Shown piece by piece: positions 6,221 to 63,620 of a stretch of 64,000 nucleotides of DNA. A program made the position numbers and the translations under genes. The first letter of the stretch is position 1. Every line of letters begins with the position of its first letter. Source of the stretch: Malacoraja senta (taxonomy: Eukaryota); NCBI GenBank assembly GCA_038087875.1, contig CM075992.1, forward strand, positions 10,976,001 to 11,040,000, written 5' to 3'. The notes beneath the pieces are model-generated. The model worked only from the letters and a program-made list of their open reading frames with translations, did no database searches and was not told where the DNA came from.

Positions 6221-6420
6221 NNNNNNNNNNNNNNNNNNNNNNNNNNNNNNNNNNNNNNNNNNNNNNNNNNNNNNNNNNNNNNNNNNNNNNNNNNNNNNNN
6301 NNNNNNNNNNNNNNNNNNNNNNNNNNNNNNNNNNNNNNNNNNNNNNNNNNNNNNNNNNNNNNNNNNNNNNNNNNNNNNNNNNNNNNNNNNNNNNNNNNNN
6401 NNNNNNNNNNNNNNNNNNNN
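6221..6420. other. Assembly gap (200 N)
   Basis: Run of N. Confidence 1.
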
Positions 6421-6452: not shown

Positions 6453-9086
6453 CTACTGGCGCGACAAGGCGTCAGCCAAGACATTATCCTTGCCACGGAT
6501 ATGCCTGACCTCCAGGTTGTAGTCTTGCAGCTGCAAACTCCAGCTCATTAACCGCCGGTTCTTATTCTTAATACTTTTCAAAAATACCAACGGATTATGA
6601 TCCATGAGTACGATGACAGGGACATTCGAGGAGCCAACATAAACCTCGAAATGATTCAACCTCGAAATTATTAAAATAGCAAGGGCTTCTTTCTCAATGG
6701 TGGAGTACCACTTCTGATGACGATTAAACTTCTTAGAGAAGTACGAAACTGGATGCTCCACCCCATCTGAATCATCCTGTAGAAGAACTCCCCCAACCCC
6801 ACGATCAGTAGCATCCACTGCCAGCTTAAATGGACGCTCAAAATCAGGTGCCGCAAGCACAGGTGCGCGCACCAGAAAACTTTTAGTATGATCAAAGGCT
6901 TGTTGACACTCTGCGGACCACACAAAAGCTACCTTCGGACTCAGCAAATCCGTCAAAGGGGTAGCCACCGTAGAGAAGTTTGGACAGAATCCTCTATAGT
7001 ACCCAACCATAGCCAGATACCTACGGAGTTCAGTCCACGAGGTAGGAGCAGGAAATGCGACAATATGCCCCACCTTTTTCTTGAGAGTACGAACCTGACC
7101 CCGGCCCACCACCTTACCCAGATACGTTACCGTGGCCTGGCCAAACTCACACTTCCCCAGATTGATCGTTAGTTTTGCCTCCCCTAGACGATGAAATACC
7201 TCCTTCAGATGATCGATGTGTTCGATCCACGACCTGGAGCACACAACCAAATCATCAAGGTATGCCTCACAGAAGGACAAACCAGACAATACAATGTTCA
7301 CCAACCGTTGGAAGGTTGCCGGCGCATTGCGCATCCCAAATGCCATTACTGTGTACTGAAGAAAGTTATCAGGCGTAACGAACGCAGAGATCTCCCTCGC
7401 CCGCCTAGTCAAAGGAACTTGCCAATACCCTTTTTTACTTGATCCAATAATTACCAGATGGGTAGTGATGGCAGTGAGTGGAATGATCTGTTCCTCTTGT
7501 CCAACTAACAAGTCCAACTTAGACACAAAAGATGCACTTCCCACAAGATCCACGCAATCCTCCATTCGTGGGAGAGGATAGCAATCCGGCTTAGTTACAC
7601 CATTCACTTTCCGAAAGTCCATGCAAAACCTGTCCTCCCCATTAGCCTTCGTAGCCAGTGGACACGGAGAACTCCACGGACTACAACTAGGTTCAGCAAT
7701 GCCATGCCGCAGCAGACAGTCAACCTGACTCCCTAGACGATGACGCCTGTCAGGGTTGACCCGATACGGATGCTGTTTAATTGGCGCAGCACCGGCCACG
7801 TCAATGTCATGCTGCAGCACAGACGTCTGAGAAGGCACGTCCGAGAACAGTGACCCATTTGACTCCACCAAAGCAAGCAGATCACCCCGCTGACTTTCAG
7901 TCAAATGAGACAACCGCAAGAGAAGCGACTCCAAAGCCTCAGAGTTACACAGCCTTCCCTGCGTCACTGCCACAGACAACCGTGCCTCACACACATCACC
8001 ACCCGTGTCAGGGGGCAGCACTGCTGCAGCCAAAACAGGCTTAGACAAAACCGAAGGACACAGCACCTCCCCATCAACCTCCACAGGCTCCTGCTCATGG
8101 TACTGTTTCATCATGTTGACATGACAGAGCTGAGTCTTACGCCTTCGATCAGGGGTACCAATAACATAATCCCTTTCACCAACCTTCTTAACCACCTGAT
8201 AGGGTCCGCTATACCGAGCCTGCAGACTGGAACCAGGAATAGGCAACAACACCAGGACCTTATCCCCTGGAGAAAAATTCCTACTAGAAGCCTTCCTGTC
8301 GAACCACCCCTTCATCCTAGACTGAGCAGAAGCAAGATTACCCATTGCCAGTTCGCATGCCCTCTTCAGTCTAGACCGAAAGGTACAGACGTGGTCTAAA
8401 ATACTACGTTTTGTATCCTCCTGCAACCATTTCTCCTTTAGGACCCTCAACGGACCACGTACAGTATGCGCGAACACCAGGTCAGCAGGACTGAACCCTA
8501 AAGACTCCTGCACGACCTCATGCACCGCAAACATAACTAGATGAACCACCTCATCCCAGTCTTTTTCAAACTCCAGGCAGTAAGTCCTCAACATAGATTT
8601 CAAAGTCTGGTGAAACCTCTCGAGAGCTCCCTGGCTCTCAGGGTGATACGCATTGGAGTAACAATGCTTAATATCTAACAACTTCATTACCTGACCAAAA
8701 ACCTTCGACATGAAGTTGGAACCTTGGTCACTCTGCACAACCTTGGGCAAACCGAACAACGAAAAAAAATTAGTGAGAGACTTCACAATGGTAGGGGCAG
8801 TAATTCTACGGAAAGGGACCACCTCCGGAAAGCGGGTAGACGCACACATAAATGTCAATAAAAACTTGTTGCCCACCCTTGTCCGAGGTAGAGGACCCAC
8901 ACAATCAACTAAAATCCGCTCAAACGGCTCACCGACCACAGAGATTGGATATAAAGGCGCAGGAACAATCGACTGGTTCGGCTTTCCTGCCACCTGGCAA
9001 ATGTGACAACACCTGCACTGCTGTTTCACGTCCTTTTTCAACCCTGGCCAAAAAAAATTCCGTAAGATACGGTCATACGTCTTATT
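6453..9086 (-). CDS. Gmr1-like pol, open segment: integrase, then RT, then RNase H
   Basis: 862-aa ORF: CCHICQ, VDCVGP, SDQGSNF, ESQGALERFH (INT); DFRKVN, AFGMRNAPATFQR, YLDD (RT); LAVDA, IEKEALA, DHNPL, NVLADALSR (RH). Confidence 0.9.
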   Translation of the reverse strand, partial: NKTYDRILRNFFWPGLKKDVKQQCRCCHICQVAGKPNQSIVPAPLYPISVVGEPFERILVDCVGPLPRTRVGNKFLLTFMCASTRFPEVVPFRRITAPTIVKSLTNFFSLFGLPKVVQSDQGSNFMSKVFGQVMKLLDIKHCYSNAYHPESQGALERFHQTLKSMLRTYCLEFEKDWDEVVHLVMFAVHEVVQESLGFSPADLVFAHTVRGPLRVLKEKWLQEDTKRSILDHVCTFRSRLKRACELAMGNLASAQSRMKGWFDRKASSRNFSPGDKVLVLLPIPGSSLQARYSGPYQVVKKVGERDYVIGTPDRRRKTQLCHVNMMKQYHEQEPVEVDGEVLCPSVLSKPVLAAAVLPPDTGGDVCEARLSVAVTQGRLCNSEALESLLLRLSHLTESQRGDLLALVESNGSLFSDVPSQTSVLQHDIDVAGAAPIKQHPYRVNPDRRHRLGSQVDCLLRHGIAEPSCSPWSSPCPLATKANGEDRFCMDFRKVNGVTKPDCYPLPRMEDCVDLVGSASFVSKLDLLVGQEEQIIPLTAITTHLVIIGSSKKGYWQVPLTRRAREISAFVTPDNFLQYTVMAFGMRNAPATFQRLVNIVLSGLSFCEAYLDDLVVCSRSWIEHIDHLKEVFHRLGEAKLTINLGKCEFGQATVTYLGKVVGRGQVRTLKKKVGHIVAFPAPTSWTELRRYLAMVGYYRGFCPNFSTVATPLTDLLSPKVAFVWSAECQQAFDHTKSFLVRAPVLAAPDFERPFKLAVDATDRGVGGVLLQDDSDGVEHPVSYFSKKFNRHQKWYSTIEKEALAILIISRLNHFEVYVGSSNVPVIVLMDHNPLVFLKSIKNKNRRLMSWSLQLQDYNLEVRHIRGKDNVLADALSRQ

Positions 9087-10470
9087 TTTTTTTTTTTTTT
9101 TTTTTTTTTAATTTTTATTTATTAGAAGTACATTACATTACAACCACATACATTAATACTCGTCATTTATATCTTCTTACAATTAATGTACTCCCTTTAT
9201 TTATTTTTTTACACTAGAGAAAGAAAAGATTGAAAGAGAGAAGAAAGTGAAGGAAAAAGTGCAAGTGTAGAAAATGTAACAACAAAAAAGGACGAAGACC
9301 GTATAAGAGCGAAATTAAAAACAAAAAGAAAAAGAGTTAAGAAATAGGCCCTAAGAAAAGAAAAGAGAAAGAGAAAAAAAGAAAAACAAATGTTTTTTTT
9401 TTGAGCATCACGTAAATAGGACATACCAACTCTTCAACTATCATCCCCCCTTACCCGACCTCAATTTTTTTATTTTTTTAAAGTACTTTTGCACCCTATG
9501 TTTGTAATAATTCTATAAATGCAGACCACGTCAGGTGGAAGTGATCTGGTTTACCTGCTAGGAGGAGTCTTATCTCTTCAAGGTGTAATGTTTCAAACAT
9601 ATTTGAAATCCACATATTTATAGTTGGTATTGGAGCCTTCTTCCAAAATTTTAGAATTAGCTTTTTTCCAGTTATTAACCCATAATCCATTAATTTCTTT
9701 TGAAACACATTTAGTTCTGGATCATCTTCCGTTATTCCGAAGATAATCCATTCTGCTTTGGGTATCAGTCTTGTTTTAAATAACTTTGTAAAGATTTCAA
9801 AAATTTCATTCCAAAATTTTTGAATTTTTGTACAGAAGACAAATGAGTGCGCTATAGTTGCTTCTTGGGATTGACATTTATCACAAATAGATGATACGTT
9901 TGGGAAAATTTTATGAATTTTAGTTTTCGAATAATATAATCTATGTAAAATTTTAAATTGTATTAAAGTGTGTCTTACATTAATCGAGCATTTATGCACT
10001 TTTAATAAGTATTCATTCCAACTTTCCTTTGAAATTTTAATAGCTAACTCTTGTTCCCAGTCTCTTCTGATACCCTCCGTAGATGGTATTTGTGCATTTA
10101 AGATAATATTGTACAAATATGATATTAAGTTTGCTGATTCCGCTTTTATCTGCATTGCCTCGTCCAGTACATCTGCTGGGTTATTATGATGATCTTTTAT
10201 ATATTTTTTCAAATAGTCGCATATTTGAAAGTATTTAAAATATTGATTATTTCCGAGTTTATATTTTATTTGTAATTGTTGAAATGAAAGTAATTTTCCA
10301 GTTTCATACAAGTCACCAAGCGTTTTAATTCCTAGTCTATCCCATTGTGTATAAGCTTTATCTATAATAGAAGGACTAAACGAAGGGTTATTGACTATAG
10401 GTAATAAAAGTGATAAGTTTCTTAATTTTAAATTTTGTTTTATTTGTTTCCAAATACGGATTGTACTATT
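9087..10470 (-). mobile_element. 5'-truncated L1 inserted in the Gypsy integrase zinc finger
   Basis: Poly-T at 9085-9109; ORF2 C-terminus with CDKC...HSFVFC; TSD GTCTTATT at 9079-9086 and 10471-10478; removal restores HLGVNKTYDRILRNFFWPG. Confidence 0.92.
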
Positions 10471-43952: not shown

Positions 43953-46900
43953 GACTTCCGGTAGCGACATGGAACACTAAGGGCGCTGCATTGAGCTCCT
44001 CTCCCGTAAAATTAGCTAAAAAGACGTTTTAAAGTCGGGACCGATTTTAAAAAACTTACCGGAGCTGCTTGGCGTAGCATGAGGGTGACGTCGTCAGAAA
44101 GCGACGCTAAAATCGGGTGTTTAACGGTAAAAAACGGGACTTTTAAATGAGAAGAGAGAAAAGCTCACGAGCACCTAAGAAGATCACTATAAGTCCAGCT
44201 TGAGAAAGTTTTGGATACTCTGCAAACGACAGAAGAAGGCTCAGAAGAAGAGTCTTACAGCCAAGGATCTGTGTTTGAAATGGCTGCAAAAGGAGAAAAG
44301 AAGGAGAAGGAGGTAAAGCAAATGCTTTTAGATATAACTGCTACAATCAATACGACACTGGGAAAGATGCAGAGTATGGAGTCTAATATGGAGAATAATA
44401 AGCAGAGTATGGAGACTAATATTGAGATAATTTCTCAAAAAATTGATAGTGCTTGTGGTGAGTTAAAGGAGCTGAACAAGCAATATAAGGAGTTTGATAA
44501 AAAATTTAACTCAGAATGTGCTAGAATCAAAAATGACAATAATAAGAAATTTACTGATGTAAATGATAATATTGGAGATATTGATGAGAGAATGGAAGAG
44601 ATGGAAAAAAACATGAAATCACGTAAGTAAAGAGTTTGAAAAAATCAAAGAAATCTGAAGAAGAAAAACTTGCAAGAATGACTGACAAAAATGTCTGGAC
44701 TTGGAAGCGAGATCGAGAAGGCAGAATTTGAGAATTGTTGGAGTAAGAGAAGGGCGAGAGGGACATGGATCTCAAACACATACTTTCGTTGCTGACTTAC
44801 TCAAAGATGTTTTTAAACTGCCGGAAGAATCAAGAATAGATATCGTTCACCGAGTTGGACGGGTTTCAAGAGACACAAATGCTCCTCCAAGACAGATAAT
44901 TGTGAAATTTCTGGACATCTCTTCAGTGGAATTTAAATTGAATAAGATTAACCATGGGGAGAAGCTGACATATCGTGGGGATAATATTCGATTTTTCCGT
45001 GATTATCCTAGTAATTTTTCCGTGATCATCCATAATATGATAATGTTACTGAAATTTAAACTTAACCGAATTTTATCGGCAAGAGTAATAAGACTATTCC
45101 AAATTACAAAACAGGAACATTTTGAGTTTGGTGACAAACCACATAAGCTTTTAACTCGTCAATTGAAATAACAAGAAAAGGAAAATACTATAACTAAAAT
45201 TAAATCAGAGAAAGGTGAATTATTAATACTACCTAACAATAGATTTGCACAATTTTATCAAAATTTATATGCATCTAAAACTAAAATAGAAGATAGTAAA
45301 ATTTAAAAAAATTTAGATAACTGTAATCTTCCAAAACTTGATCTTTTGGAACAAGAGGAACTTGGAGCTCAAATTACAATTGAAGAAATAGGTGAAACAA
45401 TAAAATCGCAGAAAAATGGTAAAACACCGGGACCAGATGATTTTAGTAATGAATTTTATAAACATTTCATGAGATAACGACTCCTTATTTATTTAATTTA
45501 TATACTCATGCTTTTAAAGAAAATAAACTACCTGAAACATTAGCAGAATCAACTATTACGCTTATTCCAAAAAAAGATAAAGATTTAGACGATCCGGGCT
45601 CATATAGAGCTATATCACTTTTAAATACAGACCAGAAAATTTTAGCAAAGACTTTAGCAAGAAGATTAAGCAAATATATTAGTAAACTGATAAATCCTGA
45701 TTAAACGGGGTTTATACCTAAAAGATATTCATTTAATAATTTGAGACGCCTGTTTAACATAATATACTCACATAAAAGGGAGGAAGAAGATATATCAATT
45801 ATTTCTCTGGACGCAGAGAAAGCATTTGATCAGGTACAGTGGCAATACTTATATAAAGTACTGCAAAAATTTAATATGGGAGAGAATTTTATTACATGGG
45901 TAAAACTATTATATGATAAACCGATGGCAAGAATATTAACTAATAATATGTTATCTCAAAAAATTCAATAGGCAGGGATGTGCGTTATCACCCCTGCTAT
46001 TTGCCCTTATGATAGAGCCTTTGGCTGAAAGTATAAGAATTCATCCGAATATTCATGGCTACAACACTAGGGACTCAAATAATAAAATTTCATTATATGC
46101 AGATAATATACTTTTATATATTACAAAGTCACAAACGAGTATACCAAATTTATTAAATTTAATAGAGAAATTCGGGTCCTTTTCTGGATATAGAATAAAC
46201 TGGAATAAAAGTGAAATTATGACGTTAAAATCTCAAGAATCCACACACTTATTGGTTCCCCTTTAAAATTGCAGAAAAATTTAAATATTTGGTTATTCAA
46301 ATTACGAGAAATATAAAGCATTATTCAACGCTAATTTTATACCTTTACTAAATAAACTCAATATGTTGATTACATTTTGGAAAACACTTTCTTTATCATT
46401 AATAGGTACAATAAATGCTATAAGAATGATCTTTCTACCACAATTATTATACCTATTTCAATCTATACCATTATATATACCAAAATACTTCTTTAAAAAA
46501 TTAGACTCTAATATTACCAATTTTATTTGGGATTATAGATCACATAGAATTTTAAAAAAACATTTATGTAAATCAAAAGATGTCGGGGGACTCTCACTCC
46601 CGAATTTTTTGTATTATTATTGGGCAGTGCATACTTAGAATATAATTTATTGGTTGGACAGTTCTACCCAACAGACAGAATGGATAAGAATGGAGAAAGA
46701 GGATTGTTTCCCTTGTAATATAGGAACGAGCCTCTTCTCTCCAAAAAAACGGAACAACACAATATATAAGAAGAACCCAATTATACACGATACAATAAGA
46801 ATTTGGAAACAAATAAAATTATCCTTAAAATTAAGAAATGTATCATTGTTAACGCCTATAGCGAATAACCCTTTATTTAAACCATCTCTTATTGATAAAA

Positions 46901-49278: not shown

Positions 49279-50891
49279 ACATAGATACATAGATACATAG
49301 AAAATAGGTGCAGGAGTAGGCCATTCGGCCCTTCGAGCCTGCACCGCCATTCAATATGATCATGGCTGATCATCCATCTCAGTATCCCGTACCTGCCTTC
49401 TCTCCATACCCCCTGATCCCTTTAGCCACAAGGGCCACATCTAACACCCTCTTAAATATAGCCAATGAACTGGCGTCAACTACCCTCTGTGGCAGAGAGT
49501 TCCAGAGATTCACCACTCTCTGTGTGAAAAAGTTTTTCCTCATCTCGGTCTTAAAGGATTTCCCCCTAATCCTTAAGCTGTGACCCCTTGTCCTGGACTT
49601 CCCCAACATCGGGAACAATCTTCCTGCATCTAGCCTGTCCAACCCCCTAAGAATTTTGTACGTTTCTATAAGATCCCCTCTCAATCTCCTAAATTCTAGC
49701 GAGTATAAGCCAAGTCTATCCAGTCTTTCTTCATATGAAAGTCCTGACATCCCAGGAATCAGTCTGGTGAACCTTCTCTGCACTCCCTCTATGGCTATAA
49801 TGTCCTTCCTCAGATTTGGAGACCAAAACTGTACGCAATACTACAGGTGTGGTCTCACCAAGACCCTGTACAACTGCAGTAGAACCTCCCTGCTCCTATA
49901 CTCAAATCCTCTTGCTATGAAGGCCAACATACCATTCGCTTTCTTCACTGCCTGCTGCACCTGCATGCCTACTTTCAATGACTGGTGTACCATGACACCC
50001 AGGTCTCACTGCACCTCCCCATTTCCTAATCGGCCACCATTTAGATAATAGTCTGCCTTCCCGTTTTTGCCACCAAAGTGGATAACCTCACATTTATCCA
50101 CATTATACTGCATCTGCCAAACATTTGCCCACTCCCCCAGCCTATCCAAGTCACCTTGTAGTCTCCTAGCATCCTCCTCACAGCTAACACTGCCCCCCAG
50201 CTTAGTGTCATCCGCAAACTTGGAGATGTTGCTTTCAATTCCCTCGTCCAGATCATTAATATAAATTGTAAATAGCTGGGGTCCCAGCACTGAGCCTTGC
50301 GGTACCCCACTAGTCACTGCCTGCCATTGTGAAAAGGACCCGTTTACTCCTACTCTTTGCTTCCTGTTTGCCAGCCAGTTCTCTATCCACATCAATACTG
50401 AACCCCCAATACCGTGTGATTTAAGCTTGTATCCTAATCTCTTATGTGGTACCTTGTCGAAAGCCTTCTGAAAGTCCAGATACAACACATCCACTGGTTC
50501 TCCCCTATCCACTCTACTAGTTACATCCTCGAAAAATTCTATAAGATTCGTCAGACACGATTTACCTTTCGTAAATCCATGCTGACTTTGTCCAATGATT
50601 TCACCACTTTCCAAATGTGCTGCTATCCCATCTTTAATAACTGACTCTAGCAGTTTCCCCACTACCGATGTTAGACTAACTGGTCTGTAATTCCCCGTTT
50701 TCTCTCTCCCTCCCTTCTTAAAAAGTGGGGTTACGTTTGCTACCCTCCAATCCTCAGGAACTACTCCAGAATCTAAAGAATTTTGAAAAATTATCACTAA
50801 TGCATCCACTATTTCTGGAGCTACTTCCTTAAGTACTCTGGGATGCAGCCTATCTGGCCCTGGTGATTTATCGGCCTTTAATCCATTCAAT
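49279..50891 (-). mobile_element. Young CR1 with nearly intact RT
   Basis: DKSPGPD, YRPVSLTS, DFQKAFDKV, FADD; tail (TATCTATG)n; TSD GAAGGAT at 49272-49278 and 50892-50898. Confidence 0.93.
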
Positions 50892-51833
50892 GAAGGATGA
50901 AGGGAGAATCTCATTTAAATCTACCAGATAATAAAAGATAATTGAGTGAATGTGGAAAGAATGTATCCAGTAATGGGAGAGTCTAGAACCAGAGGGCACA
51001 GCCTCAAAATAATAGGCTTTACCTTTAGAATGGAGATAAGGAGGAATTTATTTAGCCGGAGAGTGGTGAATCTGTGGAATTCATTGCCACAGACAGCTGT
51101 GGAAGCCAAGACATTGGATATTTTTCAAGTGGTGATCGAGAGGCTCTATTAGGAAGAGCATCAACGGTTATGGGGAGAAGGCAGATTAGGGCTGAGAGGG
51201 AAAAATGGATCACCCATGACTGAATGGCAGAGTAGACTCAATAAACTGAACGGCCTAATTCTGCTTTCTTGACTTCTGGGTCCTGATCCAAAATGTCATC
51301 TGTCCATTCCCTCCACAGATACTGCCTGACCTTCAGCACTTTGTTTTTTTCTCTATTCTGTATCCAATTGGCTTGCTGACCTCTGATTCCATGTCATCTA
51401 TTCTGGATTGTTAGGTACATATTTTCCAAGTTGCTCTCTTTATTTTTCAAACTAGCATGTTGAAATGCTTTGGCTTCTCCTGAAAGGCAGTGCACACTTT
51501 ATCTGATAAATGGCACCATCAAAAATGCTGCACTCTCTATAATACTCACGAATGTCGGTCTGGATTGTGTGACGTTAAATAATGTTTTAAAACGGTTGTA
51601 AATGCCAAGGCATTGTGATAACCTCAATCACAGAATAAATGGAAACCATGTGTGTTGGCAAGGGATAGGTATGGATTCACATGAACGCAGTTAGGAGATG
51701 AAAATAGGAAAGTTGAAAGATGCTGTTGTGCCTGATCAAGCAATGTAAAGGATAAGACCATGGTCTCCTTTACATTATCTGCCAAATCTGTGTGACGGAA
51801 GGCCTTGTTAGAGTTTGGGGTTTATTTGTAAAA

Positions 51834-52685
51834 AATAAGCGAATTTGGTATGCCCAGGTCATAGGTCACTCGCTATAAGCATTCTCGGCAACTGTGGTGC
51901 TGCGTTGTATGCAGGCCTGCGTTTCTTCCATGGGCGGGGTCGGGCCCGGGTCTCCGGTGCTGCGGGCACTGTTGAGTTGCTGCTGGGCCATCCCGTCCCC
52001 TCCCGGGTGTCCCGTTCCTGTCCGGTGGCGGCCCCGGACTTGCAGCCAGTGCAGGCTCTGGCGGGCCGGCGGGCCGGTGACCATCGGCTGCGCCTCTCGT
52101 GGCACGGCTCCGTCTTGTACTTGAGGTGGCCGCTGAGGGAGCGCAGCTCAGCCAGGTCATGGGCGAACTGGCACTTGTCGCCGTAGCGGCCCATCGGGGA
52201 GCGGGTTCCTCTGGAGTTGGAGCGGGGTTGGGCTGGAGTTGGCGCTTCTTCTCCACGCTGTCTATGTGTCTGTGGGCCGCTGTTGCTCCAAGCCACTGGC
52301 CCGTCAGTCCGGGGTCGCCACGGACGTCTCCGGCTGCCTCCGGGCAGATATGGGGACGGGGGGACGGTGGCGGGGGTCCAGTGGCGGTTCGGCAGCACTT
52401 GCGGCGCCGTGGACCCGAGTTCGATCCTGGCTGCGGATGAGGCGTGGGTCTATGTGCGCAGAGCAGCCGACAATGTCTCTCCGCCAGTCTCCCCCCTCCC
52501 CCACTCGCATCTGCCCCCTCTCCTCTCGCTGTTACACCTCGCTCTTTACACATAAATCATGAATAAAAATTAGAATTTATACACAGTTTCTCCAGCCAGC
52601 GCTTCGTTCGCTTTTTCTTATAGCGAGTGACCTTTGACAAATCCCATAATTCCTTGTGTTTTTCGGAACACTGAACTTGCTTATT
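51834..52685. mobile_element. Unclassified non-autonomous element with terminal and subterminal inverted repeats, carrying GC-rich cargo
   Basis: AATAAGCGAATT / AACTTGCTTATT ends; 21/22 inverted repeat at 51858-51879 and 52617-52638. Confidence 0.7.
52099..52188 (-). pseudogene. Captured fragment of a ZFP36/TIS11-family tandem CCCH zinc finger
   Basis: RYGDKCQFAHDLAELRSLSGHLKYKTEPCH resembles the family motif YGxKCQFAHGxxELRxLxRHPKYKTELC; paralogue not assignable by eye. Confidence 0.85.
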
Positions 52686-53029
52686 GTATGAGGGAAGTGC
52701 AGTGATGGGCTCAAAATATAACTTACTTGCTGACAGATGTCAATGCAAGATGGAACAGGGTGATGCTAAAATAAATGGAAACAAGAACTGATTGTTATTT
52801 TACTTCGGAGTCACGTGAGTGACTACGTGAAGAAGCCCATCCAGCCGCACGTGCGTCATTACGTCAGGCGCATTGGTGCTGGCGGCCGGTTGGAGCAGCA
52901 GAGCTCCTCCAGCGGGTAAGTTTAAAACACCTCAAGGTAAGTGAAACTTAGACTTGAGGTCGCTTTCTGAGTCGGTGGTTGTTTGTGGTCGACTATGCAG
53001 AAAGCAACAAGGTGAAGGCGAGGCGACCC

Positions 53030-53900
53030 ATGTCGAAAAGTGTAGAGGACCGCGGGAGTGCGGTTACCGAGGGCCCGCCTAGTTCACCAACTTTGTCGCA
53101 AGCAGAGCTTGCAAATGCAGACTCGTTGCATGGGAGCAGCGCTGACGCGCCGGTAGGGCGTAAGGCCACATTTAAGTCTGCCAGGCTAAATACCCAGAGT
53201 CGGGCTAGGAGGTTTTACCTCCAGAAAAGTCCGTTCCCTCACGGCTCTCACAATTAGAGCACCTAATGGAGAGTTGGCTCGAGAAAGACTCACTCCGGGA
53301 GAAGGAGTGGAGTTCTCGCCAGGCGATTGGAGAGCCTGTGCCAACAGTGCCAGAAATAGGACTGCATAATCACCCCTTCATGGAAGAAGAGGGTTTGCTG
53401 GGTCAGAATTATGCTGATACCAAGGAAATGGCTGATCATAGCCCAATGGGTGAAGGGCAAAAGGTCTTTGTACCTAATTTGGCTGCTAAATTTGCAGTCC
53501 CCAGAGAAGCTGGGGAGACATTGTGGGAAGAATTGGCTATGACAATTAATTTATATGCTCTCCCATCAGCTCAAGTGCCGATGGTCAATCAGGTTATATG
53601 GGGCCAAATGGGGGTTGCAATGAGAGCACAAGAATTGAAGCTCCAGAGGGTGCTTAAATTACTAGCTATAGGTATCACTGCGTTCGCCAGAATGGTGGAA
53701 GAGGGGCAGTTGACTGAGGTTCATCAGGACGCTCTGGGGCTTTTGTGCAGTGCACATTTTGAAATAAACAGCCTTAGAAAGAGTGCCATACGCCCCGCCA
53801 TTCACCCAAAATTTGCAGCACTGCAAACCAAATAATGTGCAGTTAACTAAATCTGTTGTTTGGGGAGGACCTCGCAAAGCGCGTCAAAGAAATGAATGAA
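53030..53900 (+). pseudogene. DIRS gag-like ORF
   Basis: VPMVNQVIW...DALGLLCSAHFEINSLRKSAIRP, located upstream of RT. Confidence 0.7.
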
Positions 53901-54169
53901 GAGGCAAAAACTGTGGGCCTCATTAAAGTGCCAACAACCAGCAGGATGGGCAAAAGGATTTTCCCTTATTGACGGGGTGCCTGTCACAGGGACTGGTGAA
54001 GGGACCAGTCGTTCATTTGCGAACACAAGAACATGGTATCCTGCCACAGGCACAAATGCTAAGATGAATTTCCCTACGAGGGGCCGGGGGCAACAAGCTC
54101 ATTGAGGAAATGGGCAGGTAAGAGACTTTGCTCCTGAAGGAAATAAATTAAGTGGGAAAGATGTTCAAA

Positions 54170-55530
54170 TAGGTGGCAGGTTACAACCTGTTTCTTAAAG
54201 AATGGCAGGAGATAACATCAGATCCATTTGTTTTGGGCAGTATAGAGGGGTTTCGAATTGAATTTTACCCTACTGTGTGTCCGTCCACTCAGCATGTCCC
54301 ACATCGGAAACTAGTGTTTTCTATGTTTCTATGTTTCTATCCCATCAGTTTGTGTCAAGCATTTTTCCTAGGTCTAAAAAGGCTGGGGGTTGTAAAATCA
54401 TTCTGGACCTGACGAGCCTGAACCCTTTTGTGCAGTATAGACATTTCAAGATGGAAACTTTTTCTACTGCTAAGCTGGTTTCCAAAGGGTGTTTTATGAC
54501 AAGCATAGATCTCAAGGATGCTTATTACTCATGGTCTGTTCATTGTGATGATAGGAGATATTTGAAATTTAGCTGGATGAGGTAATTGTGGCAATTCAAA
54601 GCACTGCCTAATGGGTTAACCTCAGCTCCGGGATTGTTTACCAAATTGTTGAAACCAATTCTTGGCTTACTCCGAACTCAGGGTCATGTGATAATGGCTT
54701 ATTTGGATGATATTTTTATTGTAGGGAACTCTCGGAGGGCAGCTAAATCGTCTGTATCAAGTGTTAAACTCACTTTTGAGCAGTTGGGGTTCGTTATCCA
54801 TCCAGATAAATCCAAATTAACACCAGTTAAAGTTATTGATTACTTGGGCTTCACCATTCACTCAGATCACATGTTAGTGACTTTGCCGAGTGATAAGAGA
54901 CAGCAGTTAATGAAGAATGTGTTAAGTTTGTTGAAGAACAATTACCTTCAATTAGACAGGTGGCAAAGTTGATTGACAAGCTGGTGGCTGCTTTTCCAGC
55001 AGTGCAGTTTGGGCCTCTGCATTATCAACAATTACAACGAGCAAAAGAACAAGCATTGAGAGAACATACAGGCCATTTTGACAGGCCTATGAAGTTGCCA
55101 ACAGATGCCATTTCTGAGATACAATGGTGGATTATGAATGTTGCAACTAGCTCCAGGAAGGTTTTGGTTGACCCACCTTCTATAGTTTTACAGACTGATG
55201 TCAGTGGCCTAGGTTGGGGTGCTACTGATATGGGTTCCAGCTGTGGAGGCAGATGGAATTGTGATGAGGCATCCCTTCTACAATTACGAGGGATCAATTA
55301 TTTGGAGCTTCTGGGAACATTTTATGGGCTTAAAGCTTATTGTTTTACCAAAAGTCAAGTGCATGTACAGGTTCAAATTGATAACACTACAGCAGTAGCA
55401 TATCTGAATCATATGGGTGGAGTCAAATCGAAACTTGTGATAGGTTGGCTATTCAGATCTGGAGTTGGTGTATTGACAGAAACATTTGGATTTCAGCAAT
55501 CCATTTACCTGGTTGATTCAACATAGTCGC
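54170..55530 (+). pseudogene. DIRS RT and RNase H
   Basis: IDLKDAY, LPNGLTSAP, YLDD; QTDVSGLGWG, INYLELL, IDNTTAVAYLN; frameshifts. Confidence 0.88.
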
Positions 55531-55970
55531 AGACACAAGGTCACGACAATTCAATGACAATATAGAATGGATGTTGAATCATGACATATTTGAAAATGTT
55601 GTTGCTCGTTTTGGGATACCAGATATCGATTTGTTTGCATCCAGACTGAACCATCAGTTGCCTAAATATGTTTCATGGGAACCAGATCCTGGGGCAGCAG
55701 CAGTTGATGCTTTCTCGGTGCACTGGGGTGAAATGTTTATATATATATATATTTCCTCCATTCTGTCTCGTCAGTCGATGCCTGCAAAAAATCAAGCAGG
55801 AGTATTGGTGGTACCCGACTGGCCTACTCAGCCATGGTATGCTCATGTTTTGCAGATGGCTACTGAGCCTCACATGATTGTTCCCAAAACAGAAACCTAC
55901 TGGTGAATCCTGTAACTGGAGATCAGCATCCTTTACATGATCGTATTGATCTGTTAATTTGCAAATTCTA
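55530..55970 (+). pseudogene. DIRS Dam/N6-adenine-methyltransferase-like domain
   Basis: DIDLFASRLN, VDAF..W, YIFPPF, VPDWPTQPWY. Confidence 0.8.
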
Positions 55971-55974
55971 AGGA

Positions 55975-56926
55975 GACCATACCTGGGGAGAGGACTATCC
56001 GAGCGCACCGTGGATGTTATCACTGCGGCCTGGAGGGATAGTACCCAAAGCAGTACATCTCTGCGATAAGAAAGTGGGAGGTTTCTGTTTACAGCAGAAT
56101 ATTTCATATCAAAATGCATGCATCCCAGGTGTGCTAGAGTTTTTGTCAACTCTCTATTTCGATCTAAAGTTAAGCTATAGTGCTATCAACACAGCCACGT
56201 CTTCATATTTACCCATAATTACATGCAGTGGGGACACATCCGTTAGTCTCTAGATTCATGAAAGGAGTTTTTAATTCCAATCCTAAACCCAGGTATTCGG
56301 TTATCTGGAATGTGAGCGAAGTTCGAATGCTGCTTTTGCCAGTGGGCTCCTGTCACAGTCCTATCTCTAGCCAAACTCACGATGAAGGTGGTCATGCTTA
56401 TGGCATTGGTATCAGCACAACGTGTGCAGACATTACAGATGCTGCATCTAGACAGCATGGAGGTATCAAAAGATGCCATCATTTTTTATGTTTATGATCT
56501 GCTCAAGCAGAGTAGAATAGGGGCGACAGGATGTAAGATTATCTTTTCGGCATACCCCAAGGATTCCCGCCTGTGTGTAGTGTCATGTTTGTCCCATTAC
56601 ATTGAGGTTACCCGAACTTTAAGGGGAATACGTGAAGAGTCAGCATTGTTCATTAGTCACAAAAAAACACACAATAAGGTGTCGGTGCAAACTATCTCAA
56701 GGTGGCTAAAGCAGGTTCTGGTAAACGCTGGGATTGACACTGATAATTTTTAATCTCATTCCACCAGGGCGGCAGCAATTCAGCGGCCAGGGCGATGGAC
56801 ATTCCTATAGACCATATCCTCGTGGCTGCAGGATGGTCCAGTGAACTAATGTTCCAAAGGTTTTATCATAAGCCAATTACAAGGCTGGGAGTTTTTGCCA
56901 ATTCTGTTTTAAGTTCAGTTATATAG
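55975..56926 (+). pseudogene. DIRS tyrosine recombinase
   Basis: LMALVSAQRVQTL, LKQSR, TISRW, HSTRAAA, AAGWS, FQRFY. Confidence 0.88.
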
Positions 56927-63420: not shown

Positions 63421-63620
63421 NNNNNNNNNNNNNNNNNNNNNNNNNNNNNNNNNNNNNNNNNNNNNNNNNNNNNNNNNNNNNNNNNNNNNNNNNNNNNNNN
63501 NNNNNNNNNNNNNNNNNNNNNNNNNNNNNNNNNNNNNNNNNNNNNNNNNNNNNNNNNNNNNNNNNNNNNNNNNNNNNNNNNNNNNNNNNNNNNNNNNNNN
63601 NNNNNNNNNNNNNNNNNNNN
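63421..63620. other. Assembly gap (200 N)
   Basis: Run of N. Confidence 1.

Follow-up and report, generated by a model that had tools for sequence, protein, structure and literature searches.

A non-autonomous ISL2EU element family of skates carrying a captured piece of a zfp36-like gene

The ZFP36-fragment element at positions 51837-52682 of the window (the whole 64,000-nt stretch of DNA that was analysed) is most probably, at a rough probability of 0.8, a deleted non-autonomous ISL2EU copy of a family in which the 3' part of a host zfp36-like gene was likely captured once, by template switching, and which was likely spread, with the gene piece as a neutral passenger, by the DDE transposase of a partner element. 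The features that define a Pack-TIR were found, namely host sequence between ends with terminal inverted repeats (TIRs), a parent gene (L059) without TIRs, and 93 flank-distinct loci. The cargo loci have shared ends, fixed junctions and one host source gene, which bears out the proposal of an earlier note on this DNA that the element belongs to a Pack-type, multi-copy, gene-fragment-capturing family.

Layout of the window copy and its captured fragment

The element is the sole copy in the window and corresponds to the CpG-rich island in AT-richer flanks described earlier, having 62% GC and a CpG observed/expected ratio of 0.83 against 41% and 0.27 in the left 1 kb. Its parts are as follows.

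51835..51836, no strand: left AT target-site duplication (TSD), with the outer A at 51834; from the sequence, family flank counts and empty paralogous sites with a single AT
51837..51854, plus: left TIR of the non-autonomous ISL2EU element, from which 13 bp are missing in the window copy; loose-end consensus at 51850
51858..51879, plus: left subterminal inverted repeat, 22 nt, present also in transposase-coding relatives
51837..51930, plus: left end homologous to the autonomous-type ISL2EU element L103 (85%)
51931..52098, no strand: GC-rich left scaffold, common to the ZFP36 and retro-tail subfamilies
52099..52190, minus: captured zfp36-like exon 2 remnant (host L059:1865-1953, 92%) with the end of CCCH finger 1, linker and finger 2 lead-in; capture junction with 4-bp microhomology on the 52190 side, deletion breakpoint on the 52099 side
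52192..52194, minus: ATG that comes from the scaffold and lies in the cargo reading frame; the sister subfamily has mostly ACG here
52191..52596, no strand: GC-rich right scaffold, a partly inverted, diverged copy of the left scaffold; some of its pieces occur also in an unrelated hAT-like family
52597..52682, plus: right end homologous to L103 and L090 (86%), with the subterminal inverted repeat at 52617-52638 and the terminal inverted repeat ending at 52682
52683..52684, no strand: right AT target-site duplication, with the outer T at 52685; from empty sites and sequence

The 22-nt subterminal repeats (51858-51879 and 52617-52638) are 95% complementary, in agreement with the earlier description. 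The terminal repeats reported at 51834-51854 and 52665-52685 are also present, and their shortness is due to the 13-bp deletion in the left end of this copy. The statement that there was no clear TSD has to be withdrawn, as the 2-bp AT duplication at 51835-51836 and 52683-52684 had been counted inside the inverted repeats. By its scaffold the window copy is of the long form, minus everything beyond the finger 2 lead-in. Long-form copies also hold an 83-bp stretch that L059 lacks.

The minus-strand ZFP36 peptide RYGDKCQFAH...KYKTEPC was recognised correctly and matches tristetraprolin (1m9o, E 3e-9) and BRF2 (1rgo, 2.6e-8). When the 90-nt piece was compared with host genes, it was found to be 92% identical to L059, against 78-79% for two Tis11B_N paralogues. 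L059 is a zfp36-like gene of two exons that has a TATA box and lacks TIRs. The capture itself was larger than the 90 nt first proposed, since fuller copies hold 590-670 bp of host exon 2 that begin midway through finger 1 and run beyond the stop codon. Of 93 copies, 59 have host base 1865, in mid finger 1, as the first cargo base; the last one, downstream of the stop codon, is host base 2457 in 55 and 2536 in 6. The abrupt stop of similarity on both sides of the window piece thus has two origins: that at 52190 is a capture junction, and that at 52099 is a secondary internal deletion. Because the cargo lies wholly within one exon, a DNA and a cDNA template would look alike. Between host gene and cargo consensus there are 8 synonymous against 2 non-synonymous differences, which is what continued constraint on the host gene would produce. 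The assembled L059 exon 2 has a -1 and a +1 indel, at 1893 and about 2057, both in C runs, which scramble finger 2; these are likely assembly errors, because the near-identical protein P0003 is intact.

Capture, spread and decay of the family

In a sister subfamily the same slot is filled by about 280 bp instead of the zfp36 cargo, an insert that presumably contains a common elasmobranch retroelement-tail motif. The sister scaffold runs on with GCCG, which are also the first four cargo bases and make up the 4-bp microhomology, and about 8 filler bases are found at the opposite cargo end of the long form. This pattern is consistent with template switching, the mechanism that we infer, and is similar to the FoSTeST model given for Ssk-FB4 in the accessible text of Tan et al. 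2021 (PMC8277862), in which one breakpoint shows microhomology and the other filler. An ancestor, either scaffold-only or bearing the retro-tail (the direction of the swap is not polarised), would have replaced the contents of its central slot, in the course of repair or replication, with about 670 bp of host exon 2, using the 4-bp microhomology at one end and gaining a few filler bases at the other. The ends of 90-165 bp that had been kept would then have served a partner transposase as substrates in trans, giving a burst of amplification before several skate species split, and later deletions would have given the short-UTR, compressed and window forms.

The inverted repeats are indeed multi-copy, the exact left-end 23-mer being present 462 times in the genome and its reversed control 0 times. 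When the genome was searched with DNA, 40 of 2689 candidates were scored and held 84 matches; the search with a 32-residue peptide gave 141 places among 150 scored, and the scaffold-cargo junction was found at 152 places with at most 2 mismatches. Zfp36 sequence is carried by 13 of the first 30 loci with the left-end 23-mer, two of the 13 being duplicates of one locus. The 152 junctions, together with the junction being present in 6 of these 13 cargo-bearing TIR loci and the exact end being kept in 24 of 83 protein-sampled copies, suggest a total of roughly 300-700 copies, a figure extrapolated from small samples.

Further derivatives were seen around the family. In the retro-tail subfamily one insertion with the same flanks recurs on many small scaffolds (L009, L011, L013-L020, L022, L024, L025 and L028), which is a case of segmental or higher-order repeat amplification. 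In the fold-back derivatives L178, L189, L174, L191 and L165 the right half is an inverted left end plus scaffold. The sister elements L167, L179, L188 and L171 have further inserts, one of them common to L167 and L179, which are possibly other captured host DNA. A second non-autonomous family (L240-L258) is hAT-like, about 640 bp long and has an 8-bp TSD in 13 of 17 copies; it gave 3375 first-look candidates and has GC-rich scaffold pieces in common with the Pack family. At L058:818-2047 (G000:C1:65.05 Mb) a chimera joins the left 440 bp of this hAT-like family to long-form zfp36 cargo. That the cargo was passed on to other classes of transposon was considered and rejected: zfp36 sequence was present in 0 of 19 sampled hAT-like copies, only the chimera would fit, and the compressed copies, in which three host pieces are joined, still have the ISL2EU TIR at 22 of 23 loci.

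The insertion and its internal deletion are older than the splits from two related species, organisms B and C, because contigs of both bridge the ends of the element and those of C also the deletion. The B contigs cover the left flank and the adjoining part of the element, with 28 other letters in 582, and the C contigs run across the deletion junction and the right end with 21 in 254 and 15 in 167; none of the contigs listed joins both flanks across the element. Words of copy L049 were present at a fraction of 0.21-0.34 in nineteen runs from 8 organisms. Three of the nineteen runs were compared directly, against the window copy. The run X1 is identical to the window and maybe not independent. 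None of the runs listed is on record as RNA; X20, which may be RNA, contains short pieces of the family. The Leucoraja RefSeq model P0006 can be aligned, with changes of frame, to the family consensus over a stretch that starts at the scaffold ATG and reaches into the left scaffold. It is a Pack copy annotated as a gene, which explains a spurious ‘ZFP36-like’ model in skate annotation.

The copies are likely neutral passengers in decay, as judged from their substitutions. The consensus frame is open over 172 codons, from the scaffold ATG to the host stop, and the non-CpG dN/dS among copies is 1.01 (bootstrap 0.91-1.08) with five shared variants removed; with CpG sites kept it is 0.90 after this removal, and the value before removal is 0.83 (0.79-0.88). 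The values of 0.83 and 0.90 and a deficit of stops (38 observed versus 47 expected) may reflect weak constraint on some copies, in a sample that was chosen largely by protein similarity and favours intact copies. Frameshifts are absent from 8 of 77 near-full copies (7 distinct loci), of which L053 alone keeps the ATG as well and is free of stops, although assembly indels may inflate the frameshift count, the host gene itself showing a -1 and a +1. The ATG is retained in 65 of 79 copies. An 11-bp frameshift present in 29 of 81 is scattered across a poorly resolved star tree, in which terminal branches amount to 7.4 and internal ones to 0.5, and the median non-CpG distance to the consensus is 4.5%.

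The family might act in trans, through read-through or piRNA-cluster transcripts of many copies from which antisense or small RNAs arise that lower the expression of the zfp36-like gene or cause its methylation, which we regard as improbable. Such small-RNA cross-talk is possible because all 93 copies keep at least one perfect 21-mer to the host (mean 56), and the antisense orientation of the cargo relative to the partner's transposase, the existence of fold-back scaffold derivatives, and the transcription of many Pack-TIRs, for which the same regulatory route is proposed in the available text of Tan et al. 2021 (PMC8277862), would be in line with it. However, the cargo motif is on both strands in none of the loci examined, the cargo copies are old, being about 8% diverged, and none of the observations requires selection for RNA output. 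The question of ‘epigenetic conflict’ known from plants, that is whether captured fragments silence their donor gene, becomes testable here in a vertebrate.

It is very unlikely that a single copy or a handful of copies produce a truncated ZFP36 of 172 residues, starting at the scaffold ATG, with a broken finger 1, a whole finger 2 and an intact C-terminal NOT1-binding motif, which would be a CCR4-NOT competitor. Both fingers are needed for RNA binding. The open consensus frame, the frequent retention of the ATG, the intact L053 and the modelling of P0006 as a protein in RefSeq would suit such a product, as would Not1 binding by the C-terminal domain of ZFP36-type proteins, described in the accessible part of PMC5031192. 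Against this, the rates are neutral, about nine of ten copies are frameshifted, P0006 is itself frameshifted, and one intact frame is expected by chance given the copy number; the scaffold ATG, too, is likely a product of CpG decay, because of the ACG found there in most of the sister subfamily.

The ISL2EU vehicle and its transposase

ISL2EU (IS4EU) elements are characterised by an AT TSD in an A|AT|T target site and by a THAP-HTH-DDE gene plus a YqaJ gene, and the GG with which their TIRs start is a tendency and no rule, as far as the accessible text of Han et al. 2015 (PMC4482050) goes. On the sequence evidence of TSD, target site and coding partners, the vehicle of the zfp36 cargo is assigned to ISL2EU (PHIS superfamily). 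AT is present at both ends in 56 of 68 complete cargo copies, and the next base outward is A in 53 and T in 52 of the 68 (22 of 28 each in a second count); these 68 were drawn from 120 loci examined, 103 with cargo, or 93 after removal of shared flanks, at least one duplicate remaining. For 5 distinct insertions of copies nested in other repeats, the uninterrupted paralogues carry a single AT, which in the case of the L026 insertion is seen in 11 of 16 printed paralogue rows. The target site reads A|AT|T, the ISL2EU signature. Short TIRs, the two coding genes and the autonomous size of about 5 kb are further points of likeness, while the skate family differs in TIRs that start with AA (they begin AAGCG, the usual GG being absent) and in the extra subterminal inverted repeats.

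Other vehicles were tried and rejected. Spy, a PHIS group without TSD and with an AAA|TTT target, disagrees with flanks that are unbiased beyond the outer A/T. An AA|TT site without TSD would spell identical letters, and against it stand the fixed inner AT, the varying outer bases and the YqaJ gene of the partner. Longer or different TSDs, TA-type Tc1/mariner elements and a Helentron were dropped on the flank counts and empty sites.

Cryptons use a tyrosine recombinase and have no DDE-type TSD. The Crypton-like vehicle put forward in the earlier note had in its favour the combination of terminal and asymmetric subterminal inverted repeats, which resembles Crypton ends, a likeness for which no support was found in the literature. 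It can scarcely be right, because the empty sites show the AT duplication and the same ends flank DDE_Tnp_4 and YqaJ genes. The view that zfp36 was copied in the ordinary way, as a processed pseudogene or by segmental duplication, and that the inverted repeats arose by chance would account for intron-free exon sequence. It deserves next to no credit, since the homology is confined within the TIRs, its breakpoints are fixed, poly(A) is absent, a TIR is present in 89 of 93 copies and the scaffold in the remaining 4, and the flanks are unrelated.

The ISL2EU assignment is matched by coding elements, and the autonomous partner that had been suggested as a check was found in decayed form. Family TIR or subterminal repeats surround the match at 7 of 23 HTH_Tnp_4 loci. 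The 5.4-kb partner element L103 is 81-92% identical to Pack copies over about 110 bp at the left end and 90-165 bp at the right, and has a decayed transposase on the plus strand and a decayed YqaJ gene on the minus strand (PF09588, E 2.3e-9). Both L103 and L090 share the family ends and match the protein of L087, an intact homologue with THAP, HTH_Tnp_4 and DDE_Tnp_4 domains (Pfam); the D, D and E motifs of the partner transposase are present. The closest named relatives of this transposase outside skates are THAP-DDE proteins of oyster, sea urchins, amphioxus and fish, at 38-54%. An autonomous copy with both genes intact was not found among the partner-transposase matches in the genome, and these ends are absent from L088 and L089, which represent different ISL2EU families.

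The L087 gene (L087:4150-5733; G000:C4:41095150-41096730) is the only full-length, stop-free partner transposase among 55 matches, and intact 527-aa homologues are found in Leucoraja erinacea and Amblyraja radiata, with 15 and 16 residue differences and at least 4 RefSeq accessions each. At the L087 locus YqaJ is broken, TIRs were looked for and not found, a sister Pack element lies in the left end, and a GC-rich stretch lies upstream. Compared with the family consensus, dN/dS is 0.86, which gives no sign of constraint, and 36 of 42 changes are common to Leucoraja. L087 is a candidate domesticated ISL2EU transposase. The broader proposal that several hundred copies of the 3' half of zfp36, an immediate-early gene of mRNA decay, feed back on the gene, as piRNA/antisense guides or as a finger-broken NOT1 decoy, with the transposase domesticated as well, seems improbable to us. 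Among the best 120 relatives of the L087 protein all named cartilaginous fishes are skates, and the next relative is an oyster protein at 54%, a distribution that would be compatible with horizontal entry into skates. The Rhinoraja ‘SETDB1-like’ model P0124 contains a stretch 64% identical to the transposase over half its length and could be either a fused model or an exonised copy.

Relation to known systems and neighbouring sequences

Pack-MULE and Pack-TYPE elements of plants have GC-rich genic cargo, are non-autonomous and have an interior that is successively rearranged. They hold many cargoes at low copy and belong to a different superfamily, whereas the skate family holds one cargo many times in a vertebrate host. 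Multicopy Pack-TIRs of animals resemble the skate family in having the ends of a TIR element around a piece of host gene and in re-transposition to unlinked sites. In the accessible text of Tan et al. 2021 (PMC8277862), 370 Pack-TIRs are given for 100 animals, 4 of them multicopy, the examples being hAT-N8_XT with the CAPSL 5' UTR and Ssk-FB4, with 3-4 copies against at least 152 in the skate family; Ssk-FB4 is expressed and selected, whereas the skate zfp36 cargo looks neutral. In the part of the supplement of that paper which was accessible, the 21 PIF-Harbinger rows are Harbinger-type, with no IS4EU, ISL2EU or skate. Capture of host genes is a further difference from ISL2EU as described in the available text of Han et al. 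2015 (PMC4482050).

ISL2EU was not detected in elephant shark in the accessible portion of Etchegaray 2022 (PMC9179366), and no cartilaginous fish stands among the ISL2EU rows of Table S2 in PMC4482050 for the 18 of 25 families listed, so far as that table is accessible. The present family extends the range of ISL2EU to skates. No report of a ZFP36-carrying ISL2EU family was found in the literature, although repeat libraries (Repbase, Dfam) may have an entry, and the word ‘zfp36’ is absent from the available text of PMC10115646. What is new, without an earlier report found, is a Pack-TIR on an ISL2EU vehicle at such copy number. A single captured coding fragment has here been amplified hundred-fold beyond the cases of Tan et al., with a readable capture junction and the sister slot preserved, and its neutral copies form a dated record of an ancestral zfp36 exon.

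The window is otherwise repeat-rich, with N runs at 6221-6420 and 63421-63620. Ordinary retroelement frames are an LTR-type pol with the integrase ahead of the reverse transcriptase (6456-9107, minus), an L1 ORF1 piece (44686-45168, plus) and a LINE reverse transcriptase (50009-50914, minus). About 120 bp to the right of the zfp36-carrying element lies a GC-richer element (52800-56200), with three frames without a Pfam match, which we take to be DIRS-like.
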